From NCBI RefSeq assembly GCF_054482595.1, contig NZ_CM137008.1: a DNA stretch of 64,000 nucleotides. One strand, given 5' to 3'. The notes under the pieces are model-generated. The model was not told the origin of the DNA. It ran no database searches and saw only the letters and a program-made list of their open reading frames with translations. Below are positions 715 to 25,625 of this stretch, one piece after another (the first letter of the stretch is position 1; every line of letters begins with the position of its first letter). A program made the translations under genes and the position numbers.

Positions 715-1065
715 ATGCCCCCACGAACCCCAAAAGCCTGCCGTGTTCGCGGCTGCCGCTTTACAACCACGGACCCTTCAGGCTACTGCGAAAGCCACAA
801 AAGCGAAGGCTGGAAGCAATACAAACCTGGACAATCCCGTCATCAGCGCGGCTACGGTTCGAAGTGGGACAGTATCCGCGCGCGTGTCCTGAAGCGTGAC
901 AAAGGCCTGTGTCAGTTATGTCTGCGTGCTGGTGTGGTGCGTGAGGCGAAGACCGTTGACCACATCATCCCTAAATCGCATGGCGGCACTGATGTCGACA
1001 GTAATCTGCAGAGTTTGTGCTGGCCGTGTCATAAGGCGAAGACGGCCCGTGAACGGCTGAAGTAA
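715..1065 (+). CDS. Phage HNH endonuclease (packaging-associated)
   Basis: 116 aa ORF with Cys pairs and DHIIPKSHGG...N motif (His-Me finger); sits immediately upstream of terminase genes as in HK97-like phages. Confidence 0.85.
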   Translation: MPPRTPKACRVRGCRFTTTDPSGYCESHKSEGWKQYKPGQSRHQRGYGSKWDSIRARVLKRDKGLCQLCLRAGVVREAKTVDHIIPKSHGGTDVDSNLQSLCWPCHKAKTARERLK

Positions 1066-1090
1066 GAACCAGTTCCCACTGCCAGAGGGG

Positions 1091-1151
1091 AGGGGCGGGT
1101 CAAATCCCTGTGACCTGACGTCTTCTGGACTGCCCGCCCCATCGTTTTTTT
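1091..1151 (+). terminator. GC-rich long hairpin followed by T-run in HNH-terS spacer
   Basis: ggggcggg ... cccgcccc inverted repeat then atcgttttttta. Confidence 0.35.
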
Positions 1152-1190
1152 ATACCCGCGAAAAATGAAATTTAACCAGGAGTGCCGCAT

Positions 1191-1685
1191 ATGGCTGGAA
1201 CGGCGGGGCGTTCCGGGCGTCGCCCCAAGCCAACGGCGCGCAAGGCGCTGGCCGGAAACCCCGGCAAGCGAGCCCTGAATAAAGATGAACCTGTTTTTAC
1301 GCCCATCAAAGGTGTTGAGCCACCGGAGTGGTTCGCTGAAGAAGATCTCCCTCTCGCCACGATCATGTGGCAACTGACAACCAAAGAACTCTGCGGTCAG
1401 GGCCTGCTGTGCGTGACTGACCTCGCGGTGCTTGAGCGGTGGTGTGTGGCCTATGAGTTCTGGCGACGTGCCGTGAAAAATATTGCCAGACAGGGCAACA
1501 CCATCACCGGTGCAATGGGCGGTATGGTCAAAAATCCTGAGCTGACCGCCAAAAAAGAACAGGAGTCCGAGATGAGCAGTACGGGGGCAATGCTCGGACT
1601 CGACCCCAGCAGCCGCCAGCGTCTGATTGGCCTGGCGGGGCAGAAGAAAGCCACTAACCCGTTTCTGAAAATTATCGAATCATGA
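1191..1685 (+). CDS. Terminase small subunit (P27 family)
   Basis: [14 protein letters not shown]... N-terminus typical of P27-family TerS; aggag SD at 1178..1182; ORF track start 1182 is a GTG three codons upstream. Confidence 0.85.
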
Positions 1686-3415
1686 GCCGGAAATCTTATC
1701 CCAACGTAAATGCTGCCAATCAGTATGCCCGGGATGTCGTTCGCGGAAAGATTGTGGCCTGCCAGTTTGTGATTCAGGCCTGCCAGCGCCATCTTGATGA
1801 CCTGATGGCGGAAAAAAGTAAGTCGTTTCGTTACCGCTTCGACAAGGACCTGGCTGAACGGGCCGCCAAATTTATTCAGCTGTTGCCGCATACCAAGGGT
1901 GAGTGGGCATTCAAACGGATGCCCATCACGCTGGAGCCGTGGCAGCTCTTTGTGATCTGCTGTGCGTTTGGCTGGGTCAATAAAGGTACCCGGCTGCGCC
2001 GCTTCCGGGAGGTGTATACCGAAATCCCCCGTAAGAACGGCAAATCGGCAATCTCTGCCGGTGTCGCCCTGTATTGTTTTGCCTGTGATAACGAGTTTGG
2101 CGCGGAAGTGTATTCCGGTGCCACGACAGAGAAACAGGCGTGGGAAGTCTTTCGCCCGGCGCGACTGATGTGTAAACGCACACCCATGCTGACGGAAGCG
2201 TTCGGGATTGAGGTTAACGCCTCAAACATGAACCGTCCGGAGGATGGCGCGCGGTTTGAGCCGCTGATCGGTAACCCCGGTGATGGTTCATCACCCCACT
2301 GTGCGGTGGTGGATGAATATCACGAGCATGCCACCGATGCACTTTACACCACGATGCTTACCGGGATGGGGGCGCGACGTCAGCCACTGATGTGGGCCAT
2401 CACCACCGCCGGGTACAACATTGAGGGGCCGTGCTACGACAAGCGGCGGGAAGTTCTCGAGATGCTCAACGGTTCGGTACCCAACGATGAACTGTTCGGG
2501 ATCATCTATACCGTTGACGAAGGCGATGACTGGACCGACCCGCAGGTGCTGGAAAAAGCCAATCCAAATATTGGCGTGTCGGTTTATCGCGAATTTTTGT
2601 TAAGTCAGCAGCAGCGTGCGAAAAATAACGCCCGTCTGGCAAACGTCTTTAAAACAAAACACCTCAATATCTGGGTGTCGGCGCGTTCGGCGTATTTCAA
2701 CCTGGTGAGCTGGCAGAGCTGCGAGGATAAATCACTGACCCTTGAGCAGTTCGAGGGGCAGCCGTGCATTCTGGCCTTTGACCTGGCGCGTAAGCTGGAT
2801 ATGAACAGCATGGCGCGACTTTATACCCGCGAGATTGACGGTAAAACGCATTACTACAGTGTGGCCCCGCGTTTCTGGGTACCGTATGACACGGTGTACA
2901 GCGTCGAGAAAAATGAAGATCGACGGACAGCCGAACGCTTTCAGAAATGGGTGGAAATGGGCGTTCTGACCGTTACCGATGGTGCGGAAGTGGATTATCG
3001 CTACATCCTCGAGGAGGCCAAAGCGGCGAACAAAATCAGCCCGGTCAGTGAGTCACCCATCGACCCCTTCGGGGCGACCGGGTTGTCACATGACCTTGCT
3101 GATGAAGACCTGAATCCCGTCACTATCGTCCAGAACTTCACCAATATGTCCGACCCGATGAAAGAGCTGGAAGCGGCGATTGAATCGGGACGTTTTCATC
3201 ATGACGGCAATCCCATCATGACCTGGTGTATCGGCAACGTGGTCGGCAAAACCATTCCGGGTAACGATGATGTGGTGAAGCCCGTCAAAGAGCAGGCGGA
3301 AAACAAAATCGATGGTGCAGTTGCGCTGATTATGGCGGTTGGCAGAGCCATGCTGTACGAGAAAGAAGACACGCTGTCTGACCACATTGAGTCCTATGGG
3401 ATCCGCTCGCTTTAA
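1682..3415 (+). CDS. Terminase large subunit
   Basis: 577 aa ORF directly after TerS with ATGA start/stop overlap; size and position typical of TerL. Confidence 0.9.
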
Positions 3416-3426
3416 CTGAGGTAATT

Positions 3427-3609
3427 ATGATCATGCTGATTCTCGCGCCTCTGGTGGGCGTGCTGGGGGCGCTTTTGCTGGCGTATGGTGCCTGGCTGAT
3501 TTATCCCCCGGCGGGGTTTGTTGTTGCCGGGGCGTTGTGCCTGTTCTGGTCGTGGCTGGTGGCGCGATATCTCGACCGTACACAGTCGTCTGCCGGCGGA
3601 GGTAAATAG
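3427..3609 (+). CDS. Small hydrophobic protein (two predicted TM helices) between terL and portal
   Basis: 60 aa [49 protein letters not shown]; gagg SD 6 nt upstream; tightly packed between terL and portal. Confidence 0.45.
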
Positions 3610-20730: not shown

Positions 20731-20756
20731 TCCTGCTTTTGTCAGGGAGATCTATC

Positions 20757-20885
20757 ATGCTTATTGGTTATGTACGCGTATCAACAAATGACCAGAATAC
20801 CGATCTACAACGCAATGCGCTGAACTGTGCAGGGTGTGAGCTGATTTTTGAAGACAAGATAAGCGGTACAAAGTCCGAGACCTAG
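20757..20885 (+). pseudogene. pin: Truncated DNA invertase gene (Pin/Gin/Hin family), only about 42 N-terminal codons
   Basis: MLIGYVRVSTNDQNTDLQRNALNCAGCELIFEDKISGTKSET then stop; serine-recombinase N-terminus with catalytic Ser in YVRVSTNDQ; full-length invertases are about 190 aa. Confidence 0.75.
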
Positions 20886-20980
20886 GGCTGACACTGCTGT
20901 TCTTGATGCAAATTAAAGGATTTAATAGTGAGTAGCGGCCTTACTAATGTAAGGCCGCTATAATCATTTTATTAATTGCA

Positions 20981-22870
20981 TTAATCGTGTTTTGGCCATA
21001 CTTTCAATGCAATTTCCCCCAACTTTTTACCCCGCTCCAGGATTTCATCCTCATCCCATTTATCCTTAACTATAAGTGGAATGTTCAGTCGTAGATTGGT
21101 GTGGACGATGAGAGCATCACGTTTTTTCAGAAATACAGCATTCTGAACAGAACGGTTTACGCTAAGGTTAAGCAAAGTTAGATTTCCCAACGTAGCTATC
21201 GCTTGTTGCCGTTTCCTTACCAGTAGCTGTTCAGGGGTAAGATCGGTTCCAGACAGAACAATTTGGTTCAATACCGTAGCATCTGAATTTGTCACCATAT
21301 GACCATTTTCGAGAGGCCAACAGGAAAACCAACTTTGAGGCATAAGATGATCGATATCGAGATTGGAAAGATTTGGACCATCAGGCTTCTCTGTCTTCAC
21401 TTGGCGACAAAGTTCTCTTTCAAGTTCCGTTAACATTGAGCGCATTTTCGGTGCGTCGAGCCTGCCAGGATAAAGTGGAGCATTGATGCAAGCATTGAGA
21501 AATTCTGAGTCACCAGGCCAACGTGAGGCTTCGCCATTTAAGCTATTGAGGATATTACGTAACTCAACACTGGAAATTTCCGTTTTAGACAAGTGCCGCA
21601 ATACATTCATAAATACATTGTTGTAATTCTTTGGCGTCAGGCCACATACGGCTCTTCGTACTACGTAGGAGACAAGATCATTATACATGGCTGCTTTCTC
21701 ATCATCAGCGATGTTAGCTATCGAAATGAACAAAGCAAGCGGATAAAGTGTCGTCACATCATAGTCTGCGATGCGATATCCAAAGTGTGAGATGGGGGTT
21801 GTGCCAAAACCATCAACCAATTCTTTATATTGTGATGCATATTGTTTGAGGCGCTTTACTTGCAGATCTGCTCGTTGTGAAGACAAGTCCTTACTTACAT
21901 AATCACGATACTCATTGTAAAGGCGAGACAGATCAATTTCACGCTGCCTTTCTGATTGCAATGTCGCATGTACTAGCCACTCCATGCGTGGTTTATTAAT
22001 ACGTCCACGGCGTTGCTTTTCCGACCAGTATTTATCTTCAAAGCTCTTCCACTCATTTTCATATAATTCAATAGCATTAATATTTTCATGCTCAGCGCAC
22101 ATAAAGATATAGTTGCGAATAAGATCCGTGGCATGAAGTTCCGCCCCTCGCCCATTTAATGTTTCAAAAATTATTTGGGCATCATCTTCAGCTTCGAGAA
22201 ATATGCTTACCAGTTTCAGATCTGTTAAGACAGCCTCAATTAGAGCTACAGCATTTTCTTGTGGTGAGTGGTTTTCTATTTTAATCCATTTTATAAAGGC
22301 TTCAGTAAAAAAACATAATGCTTCTAGTGATGGCGGGTGATTAAAATGCTTACGCAACGTACCATGCTGCGTGAAACTATCAGAGAATACGTCCCGGAGA
22401 TCGTCAATATTTTCAACATTAAAACTTTGAATAAAATGAGTTTGATCCCGAAAAGTTGGCCATAGTTTGAAGCGTTCTACTTCTTTATTTCGCATTGTGT
22501 CTTCGTTTGAGTTTTTCAGGCAAGGCGAAATGAGAGCCTCTAAGCTGAAAAGATCCGTAGCACGTAATGCTAATCGGATGGATGCCAGAACATATTGAAG
22601 AGTGGTCAATCGTTGCTGACCATCAATAATATGTATGGAATCTACACCTAATAATCCTTTTTTTGATTGAGGTTCCAGTACAACCGCACCAAGGAAATGG
22701 GGAGTTGGTTTTGTACCCGAGAGCCGGGATTGTGCTTTCTCTAGGATATCCTCCAGTAGAGCTGACCATTGGTCTTGCTGAGTCCATACATAGGCACGTT
22801 GATAGAATGGAACACAGTATTGTCGGCGGTCTTGAAAAAGTTGTTGGACAGTTAGCGTCTCGGATTTCAT
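20981..22870 (-). CDS. GmrSD-like type IV restriction endonuclease candidate (DUF262 N-terminal, DUF1524 C-terminal)
   Basis: ORF 20981..22930; motifs FYQRAYVW and IIDGQQRLTTL (DUF262) and NLDIDHLMPQSW (DUF1524 His-Me); probable start MKSETLTVQQ at 22870 with AGG SD; visibly AT-rich. Confidence 0.8.
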   Translation of the reverse strand: MKSETLTVQQLFQDRRQYCVPFYQRAYVWTQQDQWSALLEDILEKAQSRLSGTKPTPHFLGAVVLEPQSKKGLLGVDSIHIIDGQQRLTTLQYVLASIRLALRATDLFSLEALISPCLKNSNEDTMRNKEVERFKLWPTFRDQTHFIQSFNVENIDDLRDVFSDSFTQHGTLRKHFNHPPSLEALCFFTEAFIKWIKIENHSPQENAVALIEAVLTDLKLVSIFLEAEDDAQIIFETLNGRGAELHATDLIRNYIFMCAEHENINAIELYENEWKSFEDKYWSEKQRRGRINKPRMEWLVHATLQSERQREIDLSRLYNEYRDYVSKDLSSQRADLQVKRLKQYASQYKELVDGFGTTPISHFGYRIADYDVTTLYPLALFISIANIADDEKAAMYNDLVSYVVRRAVCGLTPKNYNNVFMNVLRHLSKTEISSVELRNILNSLNGEASRWPGDSEFLNACINAPLYPGRLDAPKMRSMLTELERELCRQVKTEKPDGPNLSNLDIDHLMPQSWFSCWPLENGHMVTNSDATVLNQIVLSGTDLTPEQLLVRKRQQAIATLGNLTLLNLSVNRSVQNAVFLKKRDALIVHTNLRLNIPLIVKDKWDEDEILERGKKLGEIALKVWPKHD

Positions 22871-23140
22871 GGTATACCTGTAAGCGACATTGTACAAAAG
22901 TGAGGAGTTAATCTGATTTAGAACAATCATTTTATTTTGCTATGATACAACGTATTTGTTACCGGTTAAGCAAAAAACGCGTCTGAACGCTGACGTTTTA
23001 GGGCTTTACTGGTTATTCTTTCTTATCTCTTCATCATCCCATCGGCATCCTGTCGAGGTTGTTGACTTGTTGTTATTTATTTTGTCTAGGCGCTGTTTAA
23101 TTATTATTGATAGAACTGATGGTGAGAGGTGATTGAAACC

Positions 23141-23170
23141 GTAGGCACGTCGTTTGCAAGGACGTGCTAC
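23141..23170. other. Stable hairpin in AT-rich spacer
   Basis: gtaggcacgtc gtttgcaag gacgtgctac, about 10 bp stem with one bulge. Confidence 0.3.
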
Positions 23171-23225
23171 GACTGGCTGGTGAATTTCCGATAGTGCGAG
23201 TATTGAATGATTTCCTACGTGCTAA

Positions 23226-23472
23226 CTAGTGAACAAACAACTCTTCAGTAGACTCTCAGGTATCATTCAGAGTTTCCTGAACGAAAGTTTTAGCTCAATC
23301 TTTATCTGCAGTATGTCTAACTGAAAAACTATCGTTGCTGGTGGCTTTTACGATCATCTCCACATCGTCATAACGCTTGCCAATGTGTTGGGTTAATTCT
23401 TCCTTTAACGCGTCCACAGCGCCGTTTGGCATTTGGTCATTTGTCTTTGGCTATGGAGATCTCAATACGCAT
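23226..23472 (-). pseudogene. dinI-family gene remnant disrupted by a frameshift and two in-frame TGA codons
   Basis: Minus strand reads [11 protein letters not shown] then, one nucleotide out of frame, [66 protein letters not shown]; resembles DinI (MRIEVTIAKTSPLPAGAIDALAGEL...SVRY...ILQETWESADDWFV) as recalled; length about 246 nt. Confidence 0.55.
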
Positions 23473-23677
23473 AACACTTCTTTTGTACTGCGTTTGTAGA
23501 CAGTATTATTCTTATCTGTGTAAATAAACAGTATCAAGACTTCGTTTTAGCTGCATAAGAAAAAAGAGATGGATACATTCGGAAAGCTTTTGATGGTGGT
23601 AGGCTAAGTGAATAGCCTAAAGGTGTTTTACCCCAATTATTCCCCGGTATTTCTCCGCATAAAAAACAATCATAAAA

Positions 23678-23710
23678 AAACCAGCCATAATAGGCTGGTT
23701 TTTAAGGGAT
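23678..23710 (-). terminator. proL terminator (hairpin flanked by A and T runs, bidirectional)
   Basis: aaaaaaa ccagcc ataata ggctgg ttttt just 3' of the tRNA on the minus strand. Confidence 0.5.
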
Positions 23711-23713
23711 TTT

Positions 23714-23790
23714 TGGTCGGCACGAGAGGATTTGAACCTCCGACCCCCGACACCCCATGACGGTGCGCTACCAGGCTGCGCTACGTGCCG
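23714..23790 (-). tRNA. proL: tRNA-Pro (anticodon GGG)
   Basis: Reverse complement cggcacgtagcgcagcctggtagcgcaccgtcatggggtgtcgggggtcggaggttcaaatcctctcgtgccgacca; cloverleaf with U33-GGG-G37 anticodon loop, TTCAAAT T-loop and CCA end. Confidence 0.92.
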
Positions 23791-23864
23791 ACTCGTGGCT
23801 GTTAATACTACCGTTTTCCACACCGATTGCAAGTAAGATATTTCGCTAACTGATTTATAATTAA

Positions 23865-25625
23865 TCAGTTAGCGATAAAACGCTTCTCGTCTGTCAGTAC
23901 TTGCAATAACAAACTTAACTGTGGTTTTTCATCTTTCACTCTTTCACCACGTAAGTTGTAAGTGCGGTATTTACCGTTATTGTTCAGCACCAGCGTCTTT
24001 TTCGGGGTGGTAATTGCCAGCGTATCGTTATCCGCTGCGGTAACCCAGTAATGACGGCGTTGAGGGTTGAACAAATCCTGACCTTGCGAATATTCGCTGG
24101 CAGGTGTGCTGACATGTAGCAGGCGTTGCATCAGCGTCGTCATCAGATCGGTATGATCAGTCAGCGCATTAATACGCTGCGCCGGCGTGCCTGGCCAGTG
24201 AATCACTAATGGCACCTGCAGATGACCGTGGGACCAGTCAAAGGTTTCTTCCTCTTCGCTCAGTGGAATACCCCGACCGGCAGTGATAATCACCACCGTG
24301 TTGTCCAGTTTGCCAGAATCACGCAGTGCATTGAGCACGCGGTTGATCTGGTCATCGACATTGCCTGCCGCCCGGCTATATTTCCGTGCAAATGCCTGCT
24401 GATTGCTGTCGTCAATGTTAGTGCCATTGAAAGAGACCCACGAGAACCAGCGGTTATCTTCTTGTGCGTAGCGGCCCAGCCAGTTGATCCACTGCGTGGC
24501 GGTCTGCTCGTCGGATTGGGTGCGTACGCTCGGCATCGAGAAATCTGACAACAATGCCTGGCGATACAGCGGGCTGGTAAAGCCATCTGATGAGAATAAC
24601 CCCAGCTGATAGCCTTGCTGATTAAGCGCAGTAATTAATGCCGCAGGCGTACGGGTCGACAGAATGCCGTCCATATAGCTCGGCGAGATGCCATAGAACA
24701 GGCCAAAGATGCCGTTGTCTGTAGTGTTGCCGGAGCTCATATGGCGCGTAAACGAAATATTTTGCTCAGCAAAACCTGCCAGCGCAGGCATCTGCTTCTC
24801 GAAGCGTGAGTAGTTCAGGCCATCGACAGTAATCAACAGCACATTCTGCCCAGTGCCCATATCGCGATAGCGCAGTTCGCTTAACGGATACTGAACGGAA
24901 ACGGCGTCTGGATTACCTTGCTCAATAAGACGGCGTTGATACTCCTGCGCATCAAGCAGGCCATGCTTCTCAAGAAAACGTCGCGCCGTCATCGGGTACG
25001 AAAGCGGCAGGTTAGCGCGCTGCATGGTGATCGGGCGATAGAAGTTGGCATCGGCCCAGATATACACCACATGCGAGGCGATAAAGGCGATAAATAAGAA
25101 TGCGGCCAGCGGGCGCGCGAAGCGCCGACGACGCGTCAGGCTGCGCAGCTTTTGCCAGCTCCACGTCGCAAACACCAGTTCAAGCAATAAAATAACCGGC
25201 ACGCTGATGAACATCAGCTGCCAGTCGCGCGCCATCTCATTTTCGTCTGGGTTGATAACCAGTTGCCAGACGATGGGATTAAGATGGAGATGGAAACGAG
25301 TAAAGACTTCGCTATCGATCAGTAATAGCGTCATTCCCGCCGTTGCCAGAATGACGGACAAAAACCTCATCAGCCTCTGGGAGCCGACGATAAAGGTCAG
25401 CGGGAAGAGGATCAGCAAGTAGGCGGCGAACACCAGGAAGCTGAAATGGCCGATAATGCTTACGTAGGAATAAATGCGACCAGCAAGCGTGGTCGGCCAG
25501 TCGGCGATAAACAGGTAACGGCTGCCAATGACGAGCGAAAGCAGAATATTGAACAGTGCAAACCAGTGCCCCCAACTGACCATCTGGGAGACTTTTTCAC
25601 GGTAGCGCTGACGATGAGTTACCAT
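23865..25625 (-). CDS. yejM: Inner-membrane cardiolipin/LPS homeostasis protein YejM (PbgA/LapC)
   Basis: 586 aa, N-terminal TM region then sulfatase-like domain; K-12 synteny next to proL. Confidence 0.9.
   Translation of the reverse strand: MVTHRQRYREKVSQMVSWGHWFALFNILLSLVIGSRYLFIADWPTTLAGRIYSYVSIIGHFSFLVFAAYLLILFPLTFIVGSQRLMRFLSVILATAGMTLLLIDSEVFTRFHLHLNPIVWQLVINPDENEMARDWQLMFISVPVILLLELVFATWSWQKLRSLTRRRRFARPLAAFLFIAFIASHVVYIWADANFYRPITMQRANLPLSYPMTARRFLEKHGLLDAQEYQRRLIEQGNPDAVSVQYPLSELRYRDMGTGQNVLLITVDGLNYSRFEKQMPALAGFAEQNISFTRHMSSGNTTDNGIFGLFYGISPSYMDGILSTRTPAALITALNQQGYQLGLFSSDGFTSPLYRQALLSDFSMPSVRTQSDEQTATQWINWLGRYAQEDNRWFSWVSFNGTNIDDSNQQAFARKYSRAAGNVDDQINRVLNALRDSGKLDNTVVIITAGRGIPLSEEEETFDWSHGHLQVPLVIHWPGTPAQRINALTDHTDLMTTLMQRLLHVSTPASEYSQGQDLFNPQRRHYWVTAADNDTLAITTPKKTLVLNNNGKYRTYNLRGERVKDEKPQLSLLLQVLTDEKRFIAN

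Follow-up and report, generated by a model that had tools for sequence, protein, structure and literature searches.

The closest described relatives of the locus analysed here are the Shigella serotype-converting phages. For one of these, SfI, run-off sequencing on virion DNA by Sun et al. revealed that 5′-TGCCCGCCCC-3′ is missing in comparison to the prophage, from which the authors concluded that the phage is packaged from a cos site; the cos site of SfV was called 'postulated' in the same work (PMC3636060). In Burkholderia, the phages phi644-2 and phiE125 carry 10-base 3′ extensions, and that of phi644-2 has the sequence CGCCCGCTTC (PMC2920897). The 3′ overhangs of HK97 are also 10 nt in length, and the HNH protein gp74 of this phage is needed for efficient cos cleavage and stimulates the reaction in vitro (PMC9410871, PMC11331095). 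The small terminase (TerS) of HK97 is a nonamer that binds at +15 to +29. An arginine contacts the CCCG core of this site base-specifically, the N-terminal arm lies in the minor groove and an essential A-tract is held in the channel (PMC11331095).

The DNA examined is a stretch of 64,000 nucleotides (hereafter, the window) from NCBI RefSeq assembly GCF_054482595.1, contig NZ_CM137008.1, and its start lies within a lambdoid, e14/SfV-like prophage of E. coli. A first-pass annotation had suggested that the spacer between the HNH endonuclease and small terminase genes holds the cohesive-end site. As a whole, the spacer (1066–1190) is best explained, and with high probability, as the cos site of a temperate, SfV/SfI/e14-like phage that has integrated into an E. 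coli genome. It is one more copy of the already mapped SfI/SfV/P27-type cos, and as such is ordinary and already known.

Gene context of the spacer

The spacer comprises 125 bp, as had been stated, between the end of the HNH endonuclease gene (715–1065, plus strand) and the terS start codon at 1191. The HNH product matches the Pfam HNH profile (PF01844, E 7.8e-17) and is 45% identical to HK97 gp74 over 42 amino acids, and the corresponding ORF of E. coli strain 50EVA bears the RefSeq label 'HNH endonuclease'. A cysteine-rich segment at the N-terminus can be read as a putative zinc ribbon, and by analogy the protein is presumed to be an accessory nuclease for cos cleavage. On the other side of the spacer, a ribosome-binding site (AGGAG, 1178–1182, plus strand) precedes terS, which extends on the plus strand from the ATG at 1191 to a stop at 1685 and encodes a small terminase of the P27 family (Pfam Terminase_4). 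The large terminase gene, terL (1682–3415, plus strand), encodes a protein of the HK97 type with ATPase and nuclease domains (Pfam TerL_ATPase, TerL_nuclease) that is 26% identical to HK97 gp2 (E 2e-30). Genes for the portal, an S78 protease and an HK97-fold capsid protein were identified 3′ of terL from their ORFs and Pfam matches. With a TerL homologous to gp2 and the HNH, portal, protease and capsid genes all found, the proposal of an HK97-type setting was borne out, and the spacer occupies the position of an HK97/P27-type cos site, between HNH and terS and upstream of the terL-portal-protease-capsid series. Between terL and the portal gene there is also a 60-residue hydrophobic ORF (3427–3609, plus strand), named ymfR in RefSeq.

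One correction to this HK97-type picture concerns the small terminase, which is a member of the P27 family (Terminase_4) and is not similar in sequence to HK97 gp1. Comparison of the two gave a BLASTP E of 7 and an hhalign probability of 0.5%, a profile search of the PDB showed no homology between them, and HK97 gp1 does not match Pfam Terminase_4. A Foldseek search of the PDB with a model of the P27-family TerS yielded no significant match; the N- and C-terminal arms of this model are of low confidence. In the related TerS of the Edwardsiella phage EPP-1 (L006:48-653), a stretch of roughly 37 residues just after the N-terminal arm is duplicated in tandem.

Positions 1040–1260 (221 bases) match E. 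coli strain 50EVA exactly, and among 5426 complete E. coli genomes this 221-bp region was found in 1152. The 50EVA prophage is ordered integrase, LexA-like repressor, Q antiterminator, holin, lysozyme, Rz and, on the opposite strand, iss, and continues with HNH, TerS, TerL, portal, HK97-family protease, major capsid and contractile tail. The window begins inside the iss/bor gene, part of which ('increased serum survival' lipoprotein) occupies 1–190 on the minus strand. This gene is prophage cargo, situated between Rz and HNH on the strand opposite to the late operon. Past the tail-fibre genes, the 50EVA record (2784366–2788715, corresponding to about 20,750–24,000 of the window) contains incomplete pieces of tail-fibre assembly and invertase genes, together with a DUF262 gene and an element of the IS3 type, and this annotation suggests that the right end of the prophage is rearranged.

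The cohesive end and predicted nicks

The 10-nt gap at the virion-mapped ends of SfI is identical at all bases to positions 1131–1140 of the window. The SfI record ends with the same 10-mer, and over the 80 nt up to and including the right end of SfI only two differences from the window were seen. Of the primers used for SfI, cos-R has an exact match at 1212–1231 of the window and cos-F matches 715–736 with one mismatch. The 10-nt 'cos-site' feature of the P27 record, CGCCCGCCCC, aligns exactly to 1131–1140. The records of phi644-2 and EPP-1 have the equivalent of 1141 as first base and their 10-mer as last bases, and the equivalent of 1141 is likewise the start of two contigs in IMG/VR that share this left-end sequence and are presumably phiE125 and phi1026b. 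With the SfI end identical and the P27, phi644-2 and EPP-1 ends in register, the suggested placing of cos in this spacer is upheld, and homology to the mapped sites shows TGCCCGCCCC at 1131–1140 (plus strand) to be the predicted cohesive end of the prophage.

In run-off reads, 3′ overhangs give rise to a gap and not an overlap. As the SfI paper gives the gap without polarity, we infer the 3′ polarity of the ends from this logic and by analogy to phi644-2 and HK97. Given 3′ overhangs, and judging from the relatives, the nicks are predicted at 1130/1131 on the bottom strand and at 1140/1141 on the top strand, which would leave 10-nt 3′ cohesive ends.

Such an end is at odds with packaging by the headful (pac) mechanism, for which the spacer would be merely intergenic. 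SfI has defined ends with a 10-nt gap (PMC3636060), cos packaging has been described for the group in the SfIV paper, the large terminase is of the kind that HK97 uses with its cos, and it is accompanied by an HNH gene. We found no point in favour of headful packaging, and its probability here is close to nil.

The predicted nick frame, GAC/TGCCCGCCCC/ATC (1128–1143; slashes mark the nicks), was assigned by homology and occurs once within the window. It follows the conserved frame GAC/N10/GTC of the family, with ATC as its right flank. The GAC triplet, at 1128–1130 in the window, precedes the overhang in 82 of the 84 distinct relatives; GTC follows it in 64 of the 84, and the ATC of the window, which weighs somewhat against the assignment, is shared with four. 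The overhang itself is far from constant, with 27 different sequences among the same 84 relatives.

Several smaller observations were made around the cut. Position 1126, five nucleotides before the bottom-strand nick, is T in the window (TCTGGAC) and C (TCCGGAC) in nearly all close relatives, in SfI and in most E. coli genomes; it is a variable position across the family. The SfV (U82619.2) and SfIV (NC_022749) records begin 7 nt to the left of the end mapped for SfI, at the equivalent of 1124, a point to be set against the assignment. Because the SfV record is numbered from this point, the junction of its ends (…GACGTCT/TCCGGACTGCCCGCCCC…) is not the physical end. A hybrid cos was encountered in the contig IMGVR_UViG_2896595138_000008 (L192). 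In its left half, to which the overhang TGCCCGCCCC belongs, this contig follows the SfV/window type, and in its right half (GTCAAATTTTTACACCCGCGAAATTAAAAATTT) and at the beginning of TerS it follows P27, placing the recombination joint at the cohesive end. The TerS reading frame of this contig is broken after 24 codons.

Conserved architecture of the cos region

Spacers were gathered upstream of TerS genes related to those of the window (80 loci), phi644-2 (80 loci) and P27 (23 loci) and to HK97 gp1 (80 loci). The loci found with the window's TerS are near-identical copies and of no use for covariation, and the diversity comes from the searches seeded with the phi644-2, P27 and HK97 proteins. 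The layout described below was drawn from more than 150 distinct relatives.

In the P27 family, the left side of the region consists of a G-rich box, GGGGAGGGGNGGG (hereafter, G-box), followed by TCAAATC or a variant of it and by about 20 variable bases. Next come GAC/N10/GTC and then, counted from the top-strand nick, a T-rich run (+5 to +11), CCCGCG (+15 to +20) and an A/T tract (to +35). Between the nick and the TerS-proximal block, the P27-family sequences align without any gap. In a set of 70 distinct close relatives, positions 1155–1175 are invariant and 1128–1154 near-invariant, and 1069–1086 differs at 42% of sites on average; these relatives were chosen for near-identical terS, so part of the block invariance reflects linkage. 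The same blocks are nevertheless kept where TerS is only 40–60% identical. Within the cos region, the most variable part in the close relatives is the segment between the G-box element and the nick (1107–1127), with a mean difference of 0.14 per site.

In the window, the G-box GGGGAGGGGCGGG occupies 1087–1099 on the plus strand and is followed by TCAAATC at 1100–1106, and the combined element (1087–1106) is conserved in P27-family and HK97-like cos regions. In both groups the distance from the last G of the box to the bottom-strand nick is most often 31–32 nt; it is 32 nt in 49 of 62 distinct HK97-like sequences. The start of TCAAATC and the right genome end are 41 nt apart, as counted by eye, in the window as well as in HK97. 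The HK97-like loci share the left half of the layout, with a G-run and ATCAAATC, GAC/CG at the nick and GAC before the overhang in 61 of 62 loci, but differ in the right half (AACGCTAACCCGATTTTTTT). As the G-box is common to families that have homologous TerL and HNH proteins and TerS proteins unrelated in sequence, TerL or HNH is suggested, speculatively, as its reader. Together with TCAAATC, the G-box could serve as a contact for TerL/HNH or signal termination in the manner of cosQ. A G-quadruplex in the G-box was considered and set aside, as only three G-runs are present there in the window.

In the Burkholderia relatives (L090–L144), the segment approximately 6–20 nt ahead of the bottom-strand nick contains a palindrome whose centre is always 13 nt from that nick. 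Its arms show paired substitutions (GGAGGC..GCCTCC, GAAGGC..GCCTTC, AGAAGCG.CGCTTCT and GAGGGC..GCCCTC), and palindromes with arms of at least 5 bp are present in 27% of the distinct spacers versus 11% of shuffles. It could be the site of a dimeric protein or a hairpin. The spacer of the window has no clear equivalent of this palindrome, only GAC..GTC with 3-bp arms.

The state of these blocks bears on whether the site, although a cos by descent, might be unused, being the relic of a defective prophage or one mobilised only by a helper. The prophage of 50EVA, which is identical, does contain pseudogene fragments near the integrase and in the tail-fibre/invertase region. All conserved cos blocks are intact in the window, however; the ORFs of the packaging, head and tail modules are complete, and the same cos recurs in the 1152 E. 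coli genomes counted above (of 5426) and in phages that have genome records of their own. We consider disuse unlikely, if worth bearing in mind, and favour a cos site that is probably still usable.

The inverted repeat and T-run

The first-pass annotation had described the spacer as GC-rich, with a long inverted repeat followed by a T-run. The first description fits the left part of the spacer (1066–1144, 65% GC) but not 1145–1190 (37%) or the spacer as a whole (54%); for comparison, the GC content is 57% in the HNH gene, 58% in terS and 51% in the window. The repeat and the T-run both exist. The repeat is perfect over 8 nt, GGGGCGGG (1092–1099) pairing with CCCGCCCC (1133–1140) across 33 nt, and a run of seven T (1145–1151, plus strand) starts 4 nt past the right arm. 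To call it long was an overstatement, since a perfect inverted repeat of at least 8 nt arises in 9.3% of 2000 dinucleotide-preserving shuffles of the spacer.

A GC-rich repeat that precedes a T-run could be the rho-independent terminator of the lysis/HNH transcript, instead of or besides a cos site. An all-G/C stem of 8 bp is possible, the minimum-free-energy fold adds further inner pairs and a U7 run comes after. A terminator of this kind would have a short loop, an immediate U-tract and conserved pairing, whereas here the stem encloses 33 nt and the U-run lies 4 nt beyond it. The pairing is not maintained either: in close relatives the left arm GGGGCGGG changes to GGGGGAGG and the right arm shows no compensating change, and complementarity of 8 nt between overhang and G-box occurs in only 3 of the 84 distinct relatives, most having 3–6 nt. 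The T-rich run at +5 to +11 persists throughout the family, also in members that cannot form a stem upstream of it, and is near-invariant in close relatives. The predicted RNA fold of the spacer is not more stable than that of shuffles (z = -0.96), and scans for terminators and promoters called nothing in it, the terminator scan accepting loops of 3–8 nt only. No match was returned by a search of Rfam with a permissive E-value or by a tRNA search; the same empty searches rule out GGGTCAAATCCC as a tRNA T-arm remnant or att site. Finally, the late operon, comprising Q, holin, lysozyme, Rz, HNH, terS and the head genes, must be transcribed through this point. A role as hairpin or terminator is rejected because the pairing is not kept, the T-run persists regardless of the stem and the operon is read through; whatever chance a terminator retains is slight. 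The T7 tract is better seen as a conserved A/T-rich segment, presumably flexible or bent, and not as the tail of a terminator.

The repeat might alternatively act in the form of a hairpin or cruciform whose structure is recognised by terminase, an idea that gains some appeal from the coincidence of its right arm with the cut site and from the presence in HK97, too, of an upstream G-run and a C-rich overhang. Its symmetry centre (about 1116) is nonetheless well away from the centre of the overhang (1135/1136), and a repeat as good is found in the 9.3% of shuffles noted above. The G-box is also retained alongside the 27 overhang sequences, to which it is mostly complementary over 3–6 nt, and the symmetry that is conserved is that of GAC/N10/GTC around the overhang. 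We regard a structural signal in the repeat as very improbable. The right arm belongs to the cohesive end and the left arm to the separately conserved G-box, and on the alignments the repeat is an incidental coincidence of these two elements, with no role of its own. The signal beyond chance in this spacer is conservation, not the repeat.

A putative TerS-binding site

The downstream block of the spacer (1155–1175, plus strand) consists of CCCGCG at +15 to +20 and the A/T tract AAAAATGAAATTTAA at +21 to +35. It is unique in the window, and in all relatives it stands at a fixed distance from the nick in an ungapped alignment. By position, by conservation, by the covariation described below and by the precedent of HK97, this block is likely to be the TerS-binding site and would be the counterpart of cosB. 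The expectation that the spacer contains terminase-binding elements thereby finds a candidate, which by analogy lies at the place where the HK97 TerS binds.

Two alleles of the block were recognised, and each is paired with one form of the TerS N-terminal arm. The allele AAAAATGAAATTT, to which the window belongs, accompanies the arm GRSGR[RK]PKP in 31 of 31 loci, and the allele AAATTAAAAATT accompanies GRGRKPKP in 70 of 70. This concordance, 101 of 101 loci, represents 61 distinct combinations, and three further phage records agree with it. TerS bodies with opposite arm types can be up to 82% identical, and those with the same arm type as little as 40%. The association thus cuts across the TerS phylogeny, which implies that site and arm move together as a module. 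As the site is only 30–100 bp from the start codon, linkage alone could explain the covariation, which is suggestive and not proof.

These patterns suggest, tentatively and with somewhat less than even confidence on our part, a two-part recognition logic for HNH-associated cos sites. The upstream half, common to HK97-like and P27-like sites, would consist of the G-box and TCAAATC about three helical turns before the bottom-strand nick together with GAC/N10/GTC, and would be read by TerL/HNH. The downstream half would be specific to TerS, the allele AAAAATGAAATTT or AAATTAAAAATT being matched to a one-residue difference in the N-terminal arm. No description of such a logic was found in the literature; neither cosB allele string was found in the 8 million papers covered, and searches with the motif strings gave no additional phage paper. 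If true, it would amount to a simple, swappable code for packaging specificity.

Proposed mechanism and significance

In the mechanism that we propose, a ring of the P27-family TerS would bind CCCGCG and the A/T tract at 1155–1175, 15–35 bp to the right of the cut, as the HK97 model, the position of the block and its covariation indicate. The flanking A/T tracts, including the T7 run, could provide deformable DNA. The large terminase, aided by the adjacent HNH protein, would then make staggered nicks at 1140/1141 on the top strand and 1130/1131 on the bottom strand, and packaging would proceed rightwards with the terS end first, as far as the next cos. Three helical turns upstream of the bottom-strand nick, the G-box and TCAAATC (1087–1106) might be read by TerL/HNH, perhaps in the manner of lambda cosQ, which is speculative.

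The assignment would fix the physical ends of a very common type of E. coli prophage, present in approximately a fifth of complete genomes, and should be of use for prophage genome maps, for the prediction of cos-type versus headful packaging and for judging the transduction potential of this prophage type. With it, the HK97 packaging model can be put to the test in another small-terminase family, one that is unrelated in sequence, through predictions of where TerS binds, which arm reads which DNA tract and what role the upstream G-box has. The family-wide layout and the pairing of arm and site are modest by-products of the comparison.

Comparison with known cos systems

The Shigella serotype-converting phages SfI, SfV, SfII and SfIV are closest to the window, the host here being E. 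coli. Their flanking genes are 96–98% identical (megablast), they have the same cohesive end, TGCCCGCCCC, and the same order of lysis genes, HNH, cos and terS, and between the G-box and terS the sequences are near-identical. The two differ upstream of HNH, where iss/bor is found in the window and Rz/Rz1 lies directly upstream in SfV.

The Stx2e phage P27 (AJ298298) has the same architecture and spacing as the window, the same G-box with TCAAATCCC, and a TerS of the P27 family. One of the 10 bases in its overhang, CGCCCGCCCC, is different. The A/T tract of P27 is of the other allele, CGCGAAATTAAAAATTT, and goes with the arm GRGRKPKP, whereas the arm in the window is GRSGRRPKP.

In the Burkholderia phages phiE125, phi1026b and phi644-2, 10-base 3′ extensions occur at the homologous position in the frame GAC/CGCCCGCTTC/GTC. 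Their TerS is about 54% identical to that of the window, their G-box is followed by TGAAAAAGTC and their spacer contains the covarying palindrome. The block CCCGCGAAAAATGAAATTTAA and the arm GRSGRRPKP of phi644-2 are identical to those of the window; the contigs presumed to be phiE125 and phi1026b carry an A/T-tract allele other than the window's.

In lambda, the nick site lies between an upstream element and a downstream region bound by the small terminase, and adjoins the terminase genes. This functional layout (cosQ, cosN, cosB) resembles that of the window. The overhangs of lambda are 5′ and 12 nt long, its cosB contains IHF and R sites, its terminase is gpNu1/gpA and it has no HNH gene. 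No site matching the IHF consensus was found in the spacer (1066–1190), and with this, its HNH gene and its predicted 10-nt 3′ ends the cos of the window is not of the lambda type.

The TerS proteins of HK97 and the window have no detectable sequence similarity and may at most share a predicted fold, and the TerS site of HK97 differs in sequence, with its GC core at +19 and not +15. In other respects the two agree: HNH lies at the right genome end, a 10-nt 3′ overhang, predicted for the window, follows GAC (in HK97 the frame is GAC/CGCCGCCAAA/GTT), a G-run and ATCAAATC stand at equal distance from the cut, and TerL and HNH are homologous. In both, the TerS site, which in the window is putative, lies approximately 15–30 bp to the right of the cut, where a CCCG core is followed by an A/T tract.
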